Of a stretch of 64,000 nucleotides of DNA, positions 18,401 to 48,879 are shown piece by piece. The translations under genes were made by a program, and so were the position numbers. The notes below the pieces were generated by a model. The model had not been told where the DNA came from and ran no database searches. It saw only the letters and a list, made by a program, of their open reading frames with translations. The stretch is from a virus (Duplodnaviria > Heunggongvirae > Uroviricota > Caudoviricetes). The first letter of the stretch is position 1, and every line of letters starts with the position of its first letter. The stretch is taken from IMG/VR virus record IMGVR_UViG_2740892230_000016; one strand, written 5' to 3'.

Positions 18401-19222
18401 TTTGGCACCATTGGCATTTACAGCAATAAAGACGAGATCAAGCAGGCAATGGACGCAGCAAGCGCGCGCATCGCAGCAGAACGGGAAGCCAATCTGAATC
18501 ATGCAGTCGCCGCGCTGACTCAATCGTGGGTAACAGCAATCAGGGAGGCCGCCACCACAGGGAAAATCACACCTGCAATTGCGGATGTCGTAAACGACGG
18601 CTCTAAATTTATGGATGCCTATAAAATGGATTCGGTGCAGTTGCCATCAGCCTATGGCCAACTCAGCTATCGCATGACCTACAACCTGGTATCAATGTTT
18701 TCCGACCTTGCCATCCTTGGGCTGGTGGATCTTAACGAGGTTACGCCGGAATTGCTCAGCATGCGCAAGAATCATGTGGAGATATTGCAGAGAATTAACA
18801 CGGTTCTTGCCGGGCGCACCGATGAAGAGAAACAGGCCGACGCTGATCGGATAAACCTGGCCCTTGGCAACATCACGGAGGAAGAGATTGCCGCCAGAAA
18901 CGAGAAACAAGAAGAGTTATCATCAATACAGGGTGATGCCACCAGCATAGCTCAGTCTCTTGGTCTGAATTATCGCGTATCCACCGCCGACCTGAAGATG
19001 ATGTACGCACCAAAATTCGCCGCTGGCGAGGTATTTGGGCTTCAGGAAGCCTCAGGCATGAAAGGCGTTCTTTTCCGTGCGAAAGACGCAATCAAGGCGA
19101 AATTCGGCGCTCGCTGGCTGCCAGCGAAGGCGAAGAACAGCGATTTCCCGGGTAACTGGTGGATTATCGAGACAAAACACAACGTGGCGGACGTTCTGGC
19201 CGTCATCCAACAATACGCATAA
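12455..19222 (+). CDS. darB: DarB antirestriction protein: N6-adenine methyltransferase fused to SF2 DEAH helicase (2255 aa)
   Basis: 2255-aa product; methyltransferase motif GNVPFGG; helicase Walker A GFGTGLGKTT and DEGH box; AAGGA RBS upstream of ATG. Confidence 0.85.
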   Translation: MNKLSMGVFRCSSVSEILKYIRAITSHRAPIKYGVEKVEGKSYDRLRREANQKAIDLLNSLVDGATLTDEQRQILAGYTGEGGIGGSVSEYYTPKPIAEGVWEIMKLYGADVGNTLEPSAGTGVFNETKPVGTVMTATEISSVSGRINQLLHPEDSVQISPFEQLAVSTPNDSFDHVVGNVPFGGRDNTRNIDKPYAEETDMGSYFMLRMLDKIKPGGFMCVIVPPSIVSGSNMKRLRLRLSRKAEFLGAHRLPTGTFDANGTSTVVDVVLMRKHPAEMAEKIPLVDESTLESANVLWPTFISGKWFEKDGRRFVHGTQEKGFQGRIEVRADGQIDNQALKAKLIHRFESRIDWSLLDMAEPSPTADVVDEGEMRLINGVWQKYAGGRWIEADAGKELKIDAASYGADSWEALQRNLTTTEGRLGMTFTQMANVRDKYTTSISDDMVQLVDWINSQPEKYRERLYRGAMIGRMLIEYQDMKAAGHSAEQIEQQRLSLVSRLQAEIDRFGNPGRGPIAKLSGSGARAWFAFRGAIKLDGTISDELAGKLVTHDSSASYDSTSYQDTLRYLYSDLTRDPIQLDDFRLAFTGELPASDEELLNLLASTPGIAVSPYGGIVPFARATSGDINEIVAPKQEFLATLPDGPVKNNVLNQLAAIEEKRIKTPAENIRFKLNSRWFDRSVILEFLQENGYPDLRYVQSVQLEGDEMVSDTYHGGDGLFVGHRYGVVQRKDKETGEIRYEWDRKSGENATGFPAQLEKYLNGARIGGKDSATANGYREQMALLEDQFNKWIKTHDRYDELVAKYNDVFNSNIPYEHSGDPLGLKGLSGKRQPFDYQNSEVRRLSEDGRGILGFGTGLGKTTTALALEAFNYENGRSTRTAYVVPKSVLENWYYEAKEFLSEEAFSNYLFVGLDVLMDGDQIRQVPVLDENGKPVLGTDGTPVMRDALKLADEATITARMNAIPHSNYRAVVFTKEQYARIPLRDDTVDEHAQDMLYDFVAAGRVASAMDSDSHRKEAARRRVLSEYSDTGTEKAEKYPYFEDMGFDSVIADEGHNYRNSYKNGREASQLAYLPTSAVAQSARDMAIKNAYLMKKNGGRGPVLLTATPVVNTPIDAYNMLSHVLPKEYWQNMGIYGPDDFVKFFGKTRLETVQKISGEVEEKMALVGFENLDALRGIFHRWVTLKTAEDVKDTVEIPELDEHQQDAPLTEEQLAAYEELRQQAEAAAKANNGVTTSVNEDGVIEHEKARPIFSIIRDMDRVCTDMDLYYRRITYRFLPEYADAVQQLADSLPKQATSEYDDSDDSITQQSQYSLIDKGEFIQLQVPEAFEQEVNKRLARFGIDEQTVTHPVTPKYAKLIATLKEFFPEGKQIIFTDEKTQHQKLKRIICNALNLEPSKVGILNAQTVAEAGKTGKKLKAVKPPKELPDEPTDAQIAKYNEQMALHDAYIAQQNEMSLGGLEKIAADFQEGRTPIIICNKKAEVGINLHRGTTDIHHLTLPWTPASIAQRNGRGARVGSNRASVRVHYYCGKGSFDEYRLKTLKRKAGWISDILRSDKSEMENADANDMIEMQMYTAKDDGERLAMMQVQMDKAKAAKRARQKEQATIDLQNYIKAQHAAGEDVEVLTAELERSKAELEKTTAEVAKFKQAAMAKAADNADWKARWGSVHHTDRMLLAQYRASLKSAIQRKANISQAISRYEKLLNRTQKAATDIKRLRPLVEDAINKGILDIDPDLVNHASEFLVIGDRSWRVGQYYDCAGDIVRIKSLDFDSQRADVEIIFTFKGTKSGNWDVKTLDKQVDVTPDEDAVMQKISGGVSIAGINDIISCDDFYRFQQRGMIKITDSYGVQTTESGYSIDFVGTYTDPLKHAVYPDRRDGALKSSIAKWVLGMMSEGNNRQIRSAETFLVELFGFNYGDVIASYGDTLSPEAIQEKIADAITRMPEKTSQGSTRNGDSELEVTNAIFGTNEFRASDYEITTAQFGTIGIYSNKDEIKQAMDAASARIAAEREANLNHAVAALTQSWVTAIREAATTGKITPAIADVVNDGSKFMDAYKMDSVQLPSAYGQLSYRMTYNLVSMFSDLAILGLVDLNEVTPELLSMRKNHVEILQRINTVLAGRTDEEKQADADRINLALGNITEEEIAARNEKQEELSSIQGDATSIAQSLGLNYRVSTADLKMMYAPKFAAGEVFGLQEASGMKGVLFRAKDAIKAKFGARWLPAKAKNSDFPGNWWIIETKHNVADVLAVIQQYA

Positions 19223-43287: not shown

Positions 43288-43458
43288 GACAAATCCTCCG
43301 GTTAATTAATCCAGATATTTAATTTAATCCCCGATATGTGGTCGGGGATGGGGTTAATTAAAGATTTACGTTGAAACCAAAGCGGGAAGACTTTTCTGAT
43401 GTACGGGAAATATCCAGCAATTTACGGCGCATTTCTTCCGTCAGATGCTTGAAGGCGT

Positions 43459-43468
43459 NNNNNNNNNN
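43459..43468. other. N10 scaffold gap flanked by duplicated rha 3' end
   Basis: 40 bp upstream of gap repeats sequence at about 44090-44127. Confidence 0.9.
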
Positions 43469-43773
43469 CGATCGGTTTCGAGCATTTTTGCGTGACGGGC
43501 TGCGCCGCGTTCTGTCCAGAGGATGAGGGAGCGAACGTTACGGGCGATTTTCACAGAAGGTCTTAAAGACATGCTGTGCTTAAATTCCCGCAACTCCTCA
43601 TTCTCAAGTAAAAAGTAGTGCTTACCGATAACAAATCGTCCAGAATTCCGATTGAAATTTTTTCGGATGTAATCTGGTTCTGTGCCATATAAGCTGGCAA
43701 GAAGCTCTGTAGTCACCACAGGTATATTACTAAATGAAATTATGGAGAGGGACTCCACGGAGATGGTTTTCAT
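43469..43773 (-). CDS. antirepressor N-terminal (KilA-N/ORF6N-like) fragment, 3' end truncated by scaffold gap
   Basis: MKTISVESLSIISFSNIPVVTTELLASLYG...; ORF runs into N10 at 43459-43468; sequence before the gap duplicates the 3' end of the rha gene. Confidence 0.45.
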
Positions 43774-44028
43774 GCTTTGCGTCCTACTTGATATTTTGAT
43801 TTACCCCTTTTGAGAGGGTGACCGGGCGCTCAAAACCGCAAGTAGTCGGCGGGCATATTCCCATTGCTGGTATTGTATTAGCCGCACGCCCGGTCATAAA
43901 CCAAGAAGACTGGACACAAAAAAACCGCATGTCTGTCGGGCGCGGTAACCGCTACTTGCTAAGGTGTTTTGAGCACCATGAGGCAGAATATATCCCCGTT
44001 AATGCAGCATTGTCAAACGATCTGTTCT

Positions 44029-44802
44029 TTAAAGACTTAACGAGAAGCCTTTTCGGGAATTTCGATCTGACAATCTTGAAATATCCTGTAGCGTGCGGCG
44101 CATTTCTTCCGTCAGATGCTTGAAGGCGTTAAATTCGGCGACAGCGGCGTCAACGTTATAGCCTTTGCTGTGTAGCTCATTGAGGATGCGCATAGTTGGG
44201 CTTGGCATATCGAAGAGCACGGAAGCATCAAGGCTGATAACCTTGCGATCAACATAGTTCATCGTGGCGTAGGGATGGTTATCTGAGAACCACGAGAGAG
44301 GGTAGTTGATAGATAGCGTTGATTCTGGAAGCTGAAGTTGTTCTGGGATTTTTTGACTGAAATAGCAGTCTTCCAGTTTTTCGAACACTTNNNNNNNNNN
44401 GTGATGCTCTGAAAACCACGACAAAGGGAAATTGATATTCATCGCAGGAGAAGACAGGGCCAGTTGTTTCTGTTCCCATAGTTGTTTTTCCATGCGATCG
44501 AATTCAGCAATGTAGGCTTCCTTGAATGCAGCTGCTTTTTTGCCGGTGAAGCCCATCACCAGAAAAACGAAGCCGTTTTTGGTGATTTGGTACATTGGGC
44601 GTTGTTCGCCTTTGGCGTCGGTGTAGGTAACGTCCTCAAAATTGAGGGCGTTAAATTTCTCTGAGCATTCAATATTTGCAATGGCGCGCAATACGTTATC
44701 GTGTCGCTTGCAAAAATATTCGGCAACGGCAAAGGACGTAGTAACAGCGCGACCATTGGAAATGGTGATTTCAGGTTGAGAAAGGACTGGGATAGTAGCC
44801 AT
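44029..44802 (-). CDS. Rha-family phage regulatory protein (contains N10 gap)
   Basis: MATIPVLSQPEITISNGRAVTTSFAVAEYFCKRHDNVLRAI Rha-like N-terminus; strong AAGGAGG RBS 8 nt upstream of ATG at 44802; N run at 44391-44400. Confidence 0.65.
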   Translation of the reverse strand: MATIPVLSQPEITISNGRAVTTSFAVAEYFCKRHDNVLRAIANIECSEKFNALNFEDVTYTDAKGEQRPMYQITKNGFVFLVMGFTGKKAAAFKEAYIAEFDRMEKQLWEQKQLALSSPAMNINFPLSWFSEHHXXXXVFEKLEDCYFSQKIPEQLQLPESTLSINYPLSWFSDNHPYATMNYVDRKVISLDASVLFDMPSPTMRILNELHSKGYNVDAAVAEFNAFKHLTEEMRRTLQDISRLSDRNSRKGFSLSL

Positions 44803-44967
44803 AATGGCAGCCTCCTTGATTGGTGATTGATAACCACCGCTGGAGGTAGCAAGCTCGCTGGCGGTGGACTGTACAGGGTTGCTACAACTGGCAATCAAGG
44901 GAACCAGCCCGACCGAAGTCGGCCCCATACAGCCCACCATTGATAAGATGTGCGTGTATGTCGATAC

Positions 44968-45044
44968 AAAAAAAGACGCTGGCGCGTCTGTATCGCCTCG
45001 ATTGTCAGCGGGGTAGCAATCCCGACACCCGTTTTATGAGGTGT
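44968..45044 (-). ncRNA. candidate small RNA (about 77 nt) with own promoter and terminator
   Basis: Minus-strand TTGACT-17 bp-TATATT promoter at 45051-45079, no ORF, ending at terminator AGACGC-gcca-GCGTCT plus U run at 44968-44989. Confidence 0.4.
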
Positions 45045-45050
45045 TCGCCA

Positions 45051-45079
45051 AATATAGCCCCGACATCACACGCAGTCAA
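45051..45079 (-). promoter_or_regulatory. sigma70-like promoter of candidate sRNA
   Basis: -35 TTGACT and -10 TATATT with 17-bp spacer. Confidence 0.5.
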
Positions 45080-45290
45080 TACCGTTCTTTCTCAGAAACG
45101 CTTTGGCGGTGCCGCCTGCACCCCAAAACATTCCCTGTATTGGTCAGCGCCAACTTCCTGCCAGTGTTGCCCGTTCTCACGCCGTTCTCGCTCTCGCGCG
45201 GGGATACTCTCTCATCGACCGGATCGCACCCGATGATACAGCACGTTTACGTGTAGGGGTCTAAACAGGTCATTGACGCTGTAAAGCTCC

Positions 45291-45354
45291 AGATTGTTAA
45301 AGAGCATTTTGCGGCGGGTTAAGTCGCGCCGTACGACTGATTTATGTAGCCCTG
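45291..45354 (-). promoter_or_regulatory. nut-like antitermination element (boxB-like hairpin followed by rrn-type boxA)
   Basis: Minus-strand GCCCT-uacac-AGGGC (stem identical to lambda boxB) and 30 nt downstream TGCTCTTTAACAA (rrn boxA consensus). Confidence 0.4.
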
Positions 45355-45385: not shown

Positions 45386-45430
45386 AATATAACTTGCGGT
45401 GATTTTCATGTAAATACCGTTGGTGCTTTT
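45386..45430 (-). promoter_or_regulatory. PL-like promoter with OL-like operators
   Basis: Minus-strand -35 TTTACA, 17-bp spacer, -10 TATATT; overlapping AATCACCGCAAGTTATA closely resembling lambda OR3 TATCACCGCAAGGGATA. Confidence 0.55.
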
Positions 45431-45556
45431 TAAGGGCGAGAAATTATTACTTAACTGATTTTTAAAGTGATTTATTTTTTAAGGGGGCAGATAACAGGAG
45501 GGGATATGCAAAGAAAAACCCGGCGCATGGGCCGGGCTATTTATCTGGTCCTGTTC

Positions 45557-46510
45557 TCATTCAGTAGAGTAGGGGCCAAGAAATCGCACTCCGTTGAAGT
45601 GAATAAGATGAGAAGGTGCATCAGCCACCCATACCTCTGTTTCCCATGCGATTTCACCAAGATATCGCCCCATGATGGAGCGATTTGGAAAAGCGGTCAC
45701 ATAGACAAGTCCGGCTGTTGATCCGGCAAACAGCCTGGCAAGCTCAGCATGCCGCTTCCCATCAACCGGTCCATGACTGGTGACAGACTCAACCAGTAGC
45801 AGCCAGTTTTTCGCAGTAAAATGTAGCACCACATCTGGCATTTTACCGTGTGAATCCACATCAACACCTAGCCCGGCCAGCAGTGGAGCGTCGAAGTAGC
45901 CCCACTTTTCGCCAGTGTCGCCAGCATAGACCAGCACGCTACCCGGAGCAAAACGTGGGGCGAAGTCCTCTATTATGGCACGGATAAGTTCGCTGTGCTC
46001 GCCGGGACTGAGGGTTATTTGCTGGCCCGCAGCAATTTCAACAGGGATACGATTCTGTTCGCGCTCCTTAGCATAGCGGGTAACCAGCGTTTCACGCTCG
46101 GCTAAATAGGTTGCAAGGCTATCGTGCCATGCCGGGCTGCCGAAAGTGCGTAGCATGGACAGAGCAGCAGGTTCGATCTGATAAACAGCCTTCGGGCTGT
46201 TCACTGGGCGATCGGGCTTGTCCGGATTGTAGAGGGCTACTCCAGCAGCGCAGAACTGATGCATAGACTGGCGGCGGAATGTCTCACGAGTATTGGGTGC
46301 GTAGACCTTGCCGTAGTGCTCCCGAACCCAATTCATGATTGGTGTAATGCCCACAAGCGGATTTTCCGCGTCGGCCCATGCTTTTCCCGGTGTGAGGTTC
46401 AGGAGTGCCAGCAAACACAAAGCAGAACGCTCATTCTGCTGCGCTCTGGGCAGGCCTAAGGATGCTATAATTTGCTGAGCGGCCTCAATATAATCATTTT
46501 GGTTGTTCAT
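45557..46510 (-). CDS. putative type II restriction endonuclease (317 aa), possibly BsuBI/PstI-like
   Basis: Start overlaps stop of adjacent N6-adenine methyltransferase (ATGA); size as for PstI/BsuBI endonucleases; family assignment from memory, not verified. Confidence 0.5.
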   Translation of the reverse strand: MNNQNDYIEAAQQIIASLGLPRAQQNERSALCLLALLNLTPGKAWADAENPLVGITPIMNWVREHYGKVYAPNTRETFRRQSMHQFCAAGVALYNPDKPDRPVNSPKAVYQIEPAALSMLRTFGSPAWHDSLATYLAERETLVTRYAKEREQNRIPVEIAAGQQITLSPGEHSELIRAIIEDFAPRFAPGSVLVYAGDTGEKWGYFDAPLLAGLGVDVDSHGKMPDVVLHFTAKNWLLLVESVTSHGPVDGKRHAELARLFAGSTAGLVYVTAFPNRSIMGRYLGEIAWETEVWVADAPSHLIHFNGVRFLGPYSTE

Positions 46511-47976
46511 GCAGTCAGAGCTCCTAGCTTAGCGTCAATATGTTCTTGCGTGAGAGTTTCTTGTTGCATAGCCCACTTGCCAAGCTCTATCAGAGTGTCA
46601 CGGCTTGGGTACTTAATCATCTTGAGGTCGGTTGCATTGACCTGTGTATGCCCGTTGAAGCGACGGAAATACTTATCCACTGCGGTAGTGTTCAGGAACA
46701 CGGCCAAGCCACGGGCCAGCGCCTCGGGTAACCCATGTTTGTTCTCATGAAACACGTTCATGTGATTTTCAAATCCCAACACTGAATACTCACTGAAGGT
46801 AGCAGGATCAACGACGCTTGCTACCACTCGGCGCTTTTCCTCCTTCGACGAGAAACGACGCACCACACAATAAAAACCGTTCGGGTAAAGCCACTTTTCT
46901 GTCTCGTCGTTGCGCATGATTGCGTTGGGTTTCTTCAAACCTTCCACAGGCCAGACAGTGCTACTCATACTCAAATGGCTCGGGTAGATCAGGGGAACAG
47001 TTCCTTCTTCTGGCATGCTGCGCAAATGAGCTTTCAGTCGGAAATCAACTATCGGTCCGGTCGATACCTTCACGCCAATATCAGCCAGCGAACATTGTAC
47101 GGCAGATGATAACTCAATGGTGCTTTTCTCGAGCGTGGTCGGCACATGAATAAACCGCTCCGAATCGTCCGGGTACACAATCTGGTCAAATGGGTGTTCG
47201 TAGGTGACTAGGTCAAAAAAGCTATCATCGGTCGAAGTTGTGACTGTAACAGCCTCCTGACGGCCTCCACGCTCCAGGCGGATGATAATATTTTCCTGCA
47301 ACACATCGTCATCCCTGAAAGCTTTGCTACGTGATTCGAACAAATGAATATGGCGGATTGCTGCCCGCTCAAGTATGAAATTACGGAACGGACGGTAATA
47401 CGGTCCGTTGCAGAAACTACGTGGGATTATGGCCACTATCTGCCCGCCAGGTGCAACCTCACCTACAGCCAGTGCAACAAAGGCGGAATACAGATTTACC
47501 GTCTCGATACCGACAGTGCGAAGAGCCTGCCGGTGGGCTGACTGGCTATTGATCTTCTTGTAAGGCGGATTAAGTATTGCATGGGTATAACCTCGATCCT
47601 GTAGACCTTCGGCGGTTGCCAGCTCAATATAATCCCCTTCGATGATGCGGGGCGTCACTCTCCTGTACCCGGTTAAGTGCTTCGCAAGGTGACCACACAG
47701 CTTTTTGTCGATTTCGTAGGCTGTTGCCTCGACAGACTCAAAGCCAAACTCGCCAACCAGCCAACGGTCGAGGAAGGCGCAAGACAGTGCGCCTAAACCA
47801 GCGCCTGCGTCCAGTAGACGGCAAGTTTTCATTGTGCTCGGTGGAAACAAGGAGGCCATAAAACGGGCCACGCCAGAAGGCGTCATGAACTGGCCGAACT
47901 CTGCTTTGTGTTTACGCGCGGTACGGGGAGACAGCTCGCGACGCACGCTGTCTGCGACGTCTAGCTTTTGAAGCAT
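46507..47976 (-). CDS. N6-adenine DNA methyltransferase (gamma-class), 489 aa
   Basis: SAM-binding motif LLDAGAGLGAL followed by catalytic NPPY; located directly downstream of cI in the rexAB position. Confidence 0.8.
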   Translation of the reverse strand: MLQKLDVADSVRRELSPRTARKHKAEFGQFMTPSGVARFMASLFPPSTMKTCRLLDAGAGLGALSCAFLDRWLVGEFGFESVEATAYEIDKKLCGHLAKHLTGYRRVTPRIIEGDYIELATAEGLQDRGYTHAILNPPYKKINSQSAHRQALRTVGIETVNLYSAFVALAVGEVAPGGQIVAIIPRSFCNGPYYRPFRNFILERAAIRHIHLFESRSKAFRDDDVLQENIIIRLERGGRQEAVTVTTSTDDSFFDLVTYEHPFDQIVYPDDSERFIHVPTTLEKSTIELSSAVQCSLADIGVKVSTGPIVDFRLKAHLRSMPEEGTVPLIYPSHLSMSSTVWPVEGLKKPNAIMRNDETEKWLYPNGFYCVVRRFSSKEEKRRVVASVVDPATFSEYSVLGFENHMNVFHENKHGLPEALARGLAVFLNTTAVDKYFRRFNGHTQVNATDLKMIKYPSRDTLIELGKWAMQQETLTQEHIDAKLGALTA

Positions 47977-48784: not shown

Positions 48785-48879
48785 ACCATATCACCTTTGG
48801 TTATATGTAATGAAATATCTGCGGTGTTGACATTTTAATAACTGTGCGTAATGATATGGGCATTTTGAAGGAGTCAGTT
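48785..48879. promoter_or_regulatory. OR operator/PRM/PR region
   Basis: TATCACCTTTGGTTATA (OR3-like), ATATCTGCGGTGTTGACA containing a TTGACA -35 for rightward transcription toward cro. Confidence 0.6.

Follow-up and report, generated by a model that had tools for sequence, protein, structure and literature searches.

Organization of the locus

The window analyzed here, a stretch of 64,000 nucleotides of viral DNA, comes from a TL-2011c/P13374-type phage, an Stx2a phage of the N-less Eru1 type. Over positions 44790-45100 it is identical to TL-2011c and to P13374, both Stx2a phages, of which P13374 is the phage of the O104:H4 outbreak. The minus-strand order is cI, a BsuBI/PstI-type methyltransferase, a restriction endonuclease, a terminator (45538-45517), a gap of ~470 bp, IsrK, C4, and rha, followed by antirepressor-type genes and then by kil, gam, recT, and exo. 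The gene after rha carries an ORF6N domain, and the annotation of P13374 places "anti-repressor" genes just downstream. The rha gene itself contains a 10-nt N mask (44391-44400). The features of the locus are collected in Table 1.

Table 1. Positions of the RNA genes, pairing blocks, and control sites in the window
Feature	Position	Strand	Description
PisrK, predicted sigma-70-type promoter	45051-45079	-	TTGACT 45079-45074, 17-bp spacer, TATATT 45056-45051
IsrK sRNA	44967-45044	-	about 77-78 nt; Rfam RF01394 match
IsrK intrinsic terminator	44967-44989	-	AGACGC-GCCA-GCGTCT (44989-44974) and T7 (44973-44967)
a1, GGGAUUGCUAC	45013-45023	-	IsrK nt 22-32; 5' arm and loop of hairpin 2; complementary to a'
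b1, CAAUCGAGG	44996-45004	-	IsrK nt 41-49; single-stranded stretch before terminator; complementary to b' loop
C4 antisense RNA	44857-44944	-	Rfam RF01695, 77.4 bits against a GA of 45
b', CCUUGAUUG	44900-44892	-	loop of C4 hairpin 2
a', GUAGCAACCC	44885-44876	-	C4 junction
a2, UUGCUAC	44846-44852	-	rha leader; predicted target of C4 a'
b2, CAAUCAAGGAGG	44811-44822	-	rha Shine-Dalgarno region; predicted target of C4 b' loop
rha, Rha-family regulator	44029-44802	-	257 aa from ATG 44802; Phage_pRha (Pfam), E = 4e-32
Probable PL	45386-45414	-	TTTACA-17-TATATT; operator-like AAATCACCGCAAGTTATAT (45405-45387) between hexamers
OR operator, ATATCACCTTTGGTTATAT	48788-48806		between cI and cro
Second OR-like site	45489-45507		in gap upstream of IsrK

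Judged from its sequence, the element upstream of C4 is an IsrK small RNA (sRNA) gene, a type of element also known as seqA in P4 and as the a1/b1 region in P1/P7. The isrK covariance model (RF01394) matches over its full length (44969-45044, minus strand; model positions 1-77) and scores 61.8 bits, above its gathering score of 50 (E = 8e-11 across the 64-kb window). A preceding sequence-only reading of this DNA had proposed a separate small RNA gene between PL and rha, with a promoter and a terminator of its own; the -35 and -10 hexamers, the terminator stem, and the U7 run are found on the minus strand where it had placed them, the unit scores above the Rfam threshold and is homologous to the mapped 77-nt Gifsy-1 transcript (PMC2330248, PMC4825925), and the location between the operator-associated PL and the rha start codon also holds.

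The -10 hexamer of the predicted PisrK ends 6 nt before the presumed IsrK +1 (~A45044), which in the alignment corresponds to the mapped 5' end of IsrK in Gifsy-1. Downstream of TATATT, the minus strand reads ...ACACCTCATAAAACGGGTGTCGGGATTGCTACCCCGCTGACAATCGAGGCGATAC-AGACGC-GCCA-GCGTCT-TTTTTTT, with its last position at 44967, and the RNA is laid out from 5' to 3' as hairpin 1 (45044-45025), hairpin 2 with a1, single-stranded b1, and the terminator. This layout, in which a single-stranded, seed-like b1 is followed by the terminator hairpin and a U7 tail, is typical of Hfq sRNAs. In nascent IsrK, bases at the 3' end of b1 and in the 5' arm of the terminator can pair as a 4-bp helix (GGCG/CGCC) in most members of the phage panel described below; this helix is weak and invariant among the IsrK homologues and is therefore beyond the reach of a covariation test.

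The ORF list contains no ATG-initiated frame inside the promoter-terminator unit, in agreement with the sequence-only reading, and the sole mechanical ORF is a 24-codon TTG frame (45005-45079) that begins upstream of the predicted +1, on which grounds coding potential was rejected. Consensus scans alone lend the unit no significance, with 4 promoter-like sites in the surrounding 3 kb against 3.7 expected and 9 terminator-like sites in the same region against 2.5 expected, but the complete unit far exceeds chance, because a full-length isrK match coincides with conserved positions and compensatory helices. At PisrK, we found no cI-operator-like site, such sites occurring only at the upstream PL (45387-45405 and 45489-45507), and the PisrK region gave no pattern match to a LexA box; repressor control of PisrK was rejected on this basis.

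C4 starts 24 nt past the IsrK terminator, and its 3' end lies 55 nt before the rha start. Directly downstream of IsrK as it is, C4 does not appear in the sequence-only reading. The RNA (RF01695, Rfam clan CL00128) folds into a long closing stem and two hairpins, with a GCCA tail after the closing stem; the C4 RNAs of the panel carry RCCA or RCCC at this place, and the GCCA found here gives the tRNA-like combination of stem and NCCA. The same-sense blocks a1 and b1 of IsrK are repeated past C4 as a2 and b2. Within C4, a' and b' have a predicted unpaired probability of 0.7-1.0, and folding of the free RNAs predicts that each of the four RNA blocks has mostly unpaired bases at its core.

The Shine-Dalgarno sequence of rha, AAGGAGG, lies 8 nt before ATG 44802. 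In addition, an AUG in the 5' arm of C4 (44940), which is invariant, opens an upstream ORF (uORF) that runs in frame into rha here, in contrast to a stop at the start codon as in 9/13 panel loci. PGAP extends the rha coding sequence across the C4 RNA, and the isrK and C4 RNA genes are unannotated in the GenBank and RefSeq records of these Stx2a phages. A pattern scan of the window returned no other paired copies of the a and b blocks; the b1 pattern has one isolated match outside the module (CAATCAAGG, 19089-19097, plus strand), which has no a block beside it, and further IsrK or C4 targets within the window were accordingly rejected.

Covariation of the pairing blocks

Thermodynamic predictions of the intermolecular contacts were of limited use. 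RNAduplex, applied to IsrK, C4, and the leader, ignores intramolecular structure, and its result (IsrK-C4 at the 1% tail of shuffled sequences) was not used as evidence, whereas RNAcofold (MFE) cannot draw loop-loop contacts and gives no support either way for pairing. Because neither program was suitable, covariation was chosen as the evidence for pairing. The window was aligned with modules from 12 other phages to give 13 sequences, the others being two Stx phages (95% and 75% identical to the window), SfV, ASU11, Stx1_499, Stx2d_112808, P27, P88, APSE-7, two P1-like phages, and Gifsy-1. By Rfam, isrK adjoins C4 in 11 of these 12 loci, those of Gifsy-1, the P1-like phages, SfV, P27, P88, and APSE-7 among them, and in the twelfth isrK falls below threshold.

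Across the 13 phages, pairing in the helices of IsrK and C4 amounts to 97.7%, and 20 pairs show compensatory changes. For IsrK, hairpin 1 is 100% paired (4 of its 6 pairs compensatory), hairpin 2 is 98% paired, and the terminator helix is 89.5% paired with 2 compensatory pairs; for C4, pairing is complete (100%) in the closing stem and in hairpin 1 and reaches 95% in hairpin 2, and compensatory pairs are numerous. The intermolecular helices behave in the same way. Jointly, a1:a' and b1:b' are 97.1% paired, and 12 of their 19 pairs are compensatory (5/10 in a1:a' and 7/9 in b1:b'), as opposed to 36-49% pairing in slid controls with the partner shifted by 1-3 columns; for the helices a':a2 and b':b2, pairing stands at 94%, and 13/16 pairs are compensatory. 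All three copies of the blocks, in IsrK, in C4, and in the leader, thus co-vary. For example, Stx2_PV11-77, which is 95% identical to the window, has exchanged GCTAC for AGGAC in IsrK, GTAGC for GTCCT in C4, and GCTAC for AGGAC in the leader, in a concerted manner.

A pattern scan of viral contigs extended these observations to at least 120 further loci, from which 67 distinct modules were parsed. These contain 35 different (a', b') combinations and 23 different b' loops, and some contigs hold tandem arrays of differently keyed modules. Full complementarity of a1 to a' was found in 66/67 cognate combinations and in 0/1047 non-cognate ones, and the a2 site was present in 66/67 cognate combinations versus 25% of non-cognate ones. 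Likewise, the b' loop forms a run of at least 8 nt with IsrK in 94% of cognate and 6% of non-cognate combinations, and with the leader in 99% and 19%, respectively. The transcription signals are equally constant in place, with TTGnnn-17/18-TAnnnT at the same offset in 13/13 panel loci and 67/67 modules, in seven hexamer-pair variants, and a terminator hairpin (-7.5 to -10.6 kcal/mol) followed by T6-T7 in 67/67 modules. The position of the promoter is kept in related and unrelated phages, and no ORF is; the pattern that the sequence-only reading had named as counterevidence, unconserved hexamers beside a conserved ORF in related phages, is thus clearly not what is seen.

Genomic context

The module lies ~340 nt downstream of an operator-flanked promoter, at the head of the early-left operon. 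Because an operator-like site related to OR lies between its hexamers, the promoter at 45414-45386 is very probably PL. Eru1 phages reportedly lack any homologue of N, CII, or CIII, and their lysogens are described as unstable (PMC8044961). The PL leader is 93-94% identical, over 45119-45306, to unannotated phi80 DNA between OL/PL and N, and the same segment also matches HK225 downstream of a PL-like promoter, as well as a Klebsiella phage. An rrn-type boxA (TGCTCTTTAACAA, 45306-45294) stands at the start of the segment shared with phi80 and HK225. It is a reasonable idea that a promoter-specific antitermination element may carry PL transcripts through the IsrK terminator. Two other candidates were rejected. 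A put-like antitermination site in the PL leader was dropped, as blastn found no similarity to the HK022 immunity region and Rfam gave no hit, and a hidden N gene was dropped, as tblastn with phi80 N and the early-left small proteins of HK225 returned only Kil.

Discussion

Our analyses suggest that the IsrK-C4 cassette gates the translation of the downstream Rha-family regulator, which we consider likely, and that it probably also acts on the antirepressor-type genes behind it. C4 is the pairing partner of IsrK and would define its role. By analogy with the homologous systems, the cassette would work through read-through of the terminator, RNase P processing, a translational block with polarity, trans-activation by IsrK, and Hfq binding. 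PisrK, which has no recognizable repressor operator, would initiate at ~A45044, and the majority of transcripts would end at the intrinsic terminator to give the 77-78-nt IsrK. A fraction would read through, and the tRNA-like C4 would be excised from these. C4-type RNAs of P1 and P4 are excised by RNase P. The junction a' and the loop b' of C4 would then pair with a2 and b2 of the rha leader and, because b2 is the Shine-Dalgarno sequence, C4 would block rha translation there; the untranslated rha RNA would then likely be terminated by Rho, as in P1. Since IsrK carries same-sense copies of the blocks, a1 and b1, it would compete for C4, either as the free RNA or as part of the read-through transcript. 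C4 bound to nascent a1/b1 may also strengthen termination and so limit its own synthesis, in the manner of P4 t1. We found no report of IsrK RNA in phages of the TL-2011c/P13374 type in the literature.

The direction of the IsrK effect is not settled even in Gifsy-1. There, mutations in a1 raise expression in cis and abolish activation in trans, and overexpression of STnc1160 does not show the behavior of a simple repressor (PMC4825925). Moreover, if each C4 comes from a transcript that also bears a1/b1, titration alone would always leave C4 outnumbered, so that kinetics, stability, or structure must matter.

The best surviving alternative is that the unit is solely an attenuator of the P4 type, a1/b1 being the site on the nascent RNA at which C4 enhances termination, and the released IsrK having no role in trans. 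In P4, CI controls early termination by antisense pairing with the upstream copy, seqA (PMC10111431, PMC4825925), and C4 bound to b1 would here remove the nascent GGCG/CGCC helix of most panel members. Such an attenuator would autoregulate C4 and shut off the downstream genes, and it is compatible with gating of rha translation by the cassette. As the whole explanation we regard it as possible but somewhat unlikely, since the alternative helix is just 4 bp long and invariant, IsrK has been recorded as stable and Hfq-associated (Rfam family name; PMC2330248), and Gifsy-1 IsrK supplied in trans raises translation 140-fold and induces the prophage in a pairing-dependent manner. The P4 terminator t1, which lies between PLE and cI, is said to be an intrinsic terminator that needs CI and seqA and serves CI autoregulation (a finding attributed to Briani et al. 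2000).

It is also conceivable that IsrK acts mainly in trans as an Hfq-dependent sRNA on mRNAs of the host core genome and that its proximity to C4 and rha is incidental. The family bears the name "Hfq binding RNA," and a seed-like b1 followed by a terminator hairpin and U-tail is typical of Hfq-dependent sRNAs. The candidate seed, however, is the most variable part of IsrK and always co-varies with the adjacent C4 loop and Shine-Dalgarno sequence, and a variable, co-varying seed of this kind (23 b' loops) is incompatible with a conserved host target. With the a and b blocks lacking any other paired copy in the window, we find this explanation improbable.

The sequence-only reading had likened the transcript to oop and had considered that it might act as an antisense or regulatory RNA or as a decoy terminator for PL transcription. 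Like lambda oop, the predicted IsrK of the window is a short, constitutive phage transcript (~77 nt) that starts at a promoter of its own and stops at an intrinsic terminator; oop, however, is antisense to the 3' end of cII, whereas the partners of IsrK lie downstream on the same strand. Only mechanical, unconserved plus-strand ORFs cross 44967-45044, annotated relatives have no gene there, and with no opposite-strand gene to overlap, IsrK is not oop-like. The terminator does stand in the path of transcripts from PL, in a phage group without an N homologue (PMC8044961), but the same cassette of promoter, IsrK, terminator, and C4 is conserved far from any PL, including in tandem arrays, and homologous cassettes are found in nin regions, between cro/cII and the replication genes of PR operons, in P1 immI, and in the P2-like P88. 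Its design is therefore not tied to PL, and an effect on PL transcripts would at best be a side effect; both an oop-like and a decoy function appear highly improbable. Finally, we give almost no credence to a chance juxtaposition of promoter and terminator that yields no transcript, or to a short peptide gene, even with promoter-like hexamers at their expected frequency in the region and a 24-codon TTG ORF overlapping the unit, in view of the Rfam E value of 8e-11, promoter and terminator positions kept through seven hexamer-pair variants, substitutions that are compensatory for RNA structure, and a TTG frame that starts upstream of +1.

In Stx phages, the cassette is a plausible candidate input to toxin-phage induction, because the Gifsy-1 cassette triggers prophage induction that does not depend on SOS. 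A more far-reaching scheme can be drawn for the N-less Eru1 phages, in which the boxA leader would let transcripts initiated at PL, but not those initiated at PisrK, pass the IsrK terminator, the balance of IsrK to C4 would set the high spontaneous induction that has been reported for these phages, and with it their Stx2 output, and the many orthogonal a/b keys, tandem arrays of differently keyed modules within one genome included, would form an RNA-level immunity code among co-resident prophages. We consider this combination rather unlikely; if true, one stretch of DNA would serve as an sRNA gene in the lysogen and as an operon leader once the prophage is induced. A side question raised by the genomic context is whether the module plays a part in lysogen instability. 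The IsrK described here is of a known kind, being a member of a curated Rfam family with a previously published architecture; what still deserves attention is the role of the cassette in clinically important Stx2a phages, the combinatorial diversity of the specificity blocks, and the differently keyed tandem modules of some viral contigs.

Comparison with known systems

A close precedent is Gifsy-1 IsrK (RF01394; Padalon-Brauch 2008, Hershko-Shalev 2016), which shares with the window a full-length match to the model, three hairpins of which the last is the intrinsic terminator, and a nearly identical promoter (TTGACA-17-TATATT in Gifsy-1 and TTGACT-17-TATATT in the window). In both cases the general plan is the same, the C4-like STnc1160/"orf45" of Gifsy-1 lying ~25 nt downstream of IsrK and being followed by a regulator or antirepressor gene, and in both the central part of IsrK has complementarity to the 3' half of C4 (helix b-I in Hershko-Shalev 2016). 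Gifsy-1 IsrK has been experimentally mapped as a 77-nt transcript (PMC2330248); its promoter drives the downstream operon, its terminator is partly read through, and the read-through mRNA is translationally silent (PMC4825925). When provided in trans, IsrK pairs with "orf45," antirepressor translation goes up ~140-fold, and the prophage is induced (PMC4825925). The pairs validated in that work, G28-C162 and G31-C159 (mutants G28A and G31A; PMC4825925), map to a1:a' in our alignment. On the other hand, the two differ in the sequence of their specificity blocks and in the downstream gene (AnrP in Gifsy-1, Rha family in the window), and the Gifsy-1 module sits beside antQ in the late region, whereas that of the window heads the early-left (PL) operon. 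The Gifsy-1 uORF ends at the anrP start, whereas that of the window continues in frame into rha, and translational coupling is therefore not identical in the two.

The Gifsy-1 authors noted that IsrK resembles P4 seqA and that STnc1160 resembles CI (PMC4825925), and the identity of IsrK with seqA and of C4 with CI has been stated outright (Barquist et al. 2013, PMC3632133; Mageeney et al. 2023, PMC10111431). The P4 immunity region (PLE - seqA - t1 - CI RNA/seqB - seqC) has, like the window, upstream and downstream copies complementary to a processed antisense RNA and an intrinsic terminator between the upstream copy (seqA or IsrK) and the antisense RNA (CI or C4). E. coli P4-like elements ("ash family," "Icd-like") are 83-90% identical to IsrK and C4 of the window. 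The output differs, in that P4 keeps its replication genes off by premature transcription termination, whereas the downstream target in the window and in P1 covers the Shine-Dalgarno sequence, which points to translational repression first.

The P1/P7 immI region (a1 b1 - c4 - a2 b2 - icd - ant; Citron & Schuster 1990) follows the same plan of two blocks in three copies as the window, with b2 overlapping the ribosome-binding site of the first gene, a C4 fold that exposes a' and b', and a tRNA-like closing stem followed by NCCA. The controlled genes differ, being icd/ant in P1/P7 and rha in the window, and the P1 literature treats a1/b1 as target-like sites and not as a separate sRNA. Upstream of c4, the P1-like phages of our panel share the promoter, the IsrK-like hairpins, and the terminator with the window. 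The Rfam model c4-a1b1 (RF03163) scores only 17 bits on the window against a cut-off of 46.7, co-linear at 45005-45057, and passes only in Gifsy-1 and P27 among the 12 fetched loci; as the a1/b1 blocks are present and co-vary, the function is shared despite this score. Elsewhere, a layout of isrK, C4, BRO, and Rha has been annotated in APSE phages (APSE-7 GenBank record; PMC7313666), and an Rfam-based list for EDL933 already includes isrK (twice) and C4.

Distribution of the IsrK-C4 cassette

The small RNA IsrK and the C4 antisense RNA downstream of it, with the promoter PisrK and a small Rha-like gene, recur as complete units in tandem. Four viral contigs carry two to three such units, spaced by 656 bp in L029, L039, and L074 and by 869 bp in L077. 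In the L039 array, the only one examined, the units are 80-88% identical, and the short specificity segments that we term a and b blocks differ in each, the a blocks reading CGCAG, GGCGT, and GGAAC and the b blocks GATCAAGG, CAAYATAG, and GCATACGG, unit by unit; therefore, mutually orthogonal RNA specificities are present in one genome. The cassette also extends beyond lambdoid phages. Megablast with the window's IsrK+C4 segment finds matches in 246 of 5426 complete E. coli genomes, and about one-third of these matches are only 80-90% identical and lie within elements annotated "ash family" or "Icd-like," which are P4-like satellites. The IsrK-C4 cassette is thus common to these satellites and to lambdoid Stx phages of the same species, and this sharing could permit cross-talk at the RNA level.

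The start of rha and the cassette-gene junction

An invariant AUG in the 5' arm of C4 (44940, minus strand) opens a stop-free frame in frame with rha (44802-44940), giving a mechanical ORF of 303 amino acids through rha, and this frame runs stop-free into rha in 9 of the 13 phage loci of the panel. In RefSeq, E. coli genomes appear to be annotated with the long form of rha, because the Rha CDS covers the match to 44840-45100; if so, the annotated CDS would overlie the C4 RNA. The ATG at 44802, which is preceded by a Shine-Dalgarno sequence, is more likely to be the rha start than the AUG in C4. The junction around this ATG, GGAGGCTGCCATYATGGCTACT(R)TCCC (44795-44815), was compared with its counterparts in loci L002, L003, L005, L006, L010, L011, and L012 and is near-identical ahead of unrelated genes, namely rha, ant, and, in P1-like phages, icd. 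The opening codons of the downstream gene (MATIP/MATVP) apparently move together with the RNA cassette, and the junction could be a recombination boundary or a piece of the regulatory target. Ten-base N masks are scattered over the window (18 runs, e.g. 43459-43468 and 44391-44400) and cut short or break mechanical ORFs, among them rha and the ORF6N/antirepressor gene; none of the 18 runs falls within IsrK, C4, or the rha leader.

Features flanking the cassette

Features of the window around the IsrK-C4 cassette and of the L039 tandem array
Feature	Coordinates	Strand	Remarks
ORF6N-domain gene	43441-43773	minus	sRNA-Xcc1 RNA immediately upstream
sRNA-Xcc1 family RNA (RF02221)	43812-43895	minus	79.6 bits
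PL leader	45119-45306	minus	GC-rich, without convincing ORF
rrn-type boxA	45306-45294	minus	TGCTCTTTAACAA; start of PL leader
Probable PL	45386-45414	minus	TTTACA-17-TATATT; operator-like site between hexamers
Second operator-like site	45489-45507	minus	about 90 bp upstream of PL
Strong bidirectional terminator hairpin	45517-45538		end of restriction endonuclease/methyltransferase genes
BsuBI/PstI-type restriction endonuclease and its methyltransferase	45557-47976	minus	between cI and PL
OR operator	48788-48806		palindromic, ATATCACCTTTGGTTATAT; between cI and cro
STnc100	region 56612-56871 and 54954-55203 (with AsxR, tRNAs)	plus	207.7 bits (Rfam); abuts AsxR
AsxR	same region	minus	88.1 bits (Rfam); abuts STnc100
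Three tRNA genes	same region		Rfam; upstream of STnc100/AsxR
Tandem array, L039 (IMGVR_UViG_2671181028_000005)	9785-11196 of contig (matches)	minus	IsrK-C4 units

STnc100, AsxR, and the three tRNA genes form an arrangement typical of the surroundings of stx2 in Stx2 phages. Directly after rha, the pairing of sRNA-Xcc1 with ORF6N suggests a second conserved RNA-plus-regulator cassette, because some APSE phages show the same pairing (PMC7313666).

On the other side of the module, both operator-like sites, the one in the probable PL and the one upstream of it, resemble the OR operator. The PL leader is 93-94% identical to unannotated phi80 DNA between OL/PL and gene N, to the HK225 stretch that follows the PL-like promoter there, and to Klebsiella phage KO-TP1. 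Its fold z-score is -1.96. In this phage type, which reportedly lacks N, the leader may act as a nut-like or N-independent antitermination element. The restriction endonuclease and methyltransferase genes take the place that is occupied in lambda by rexAB.
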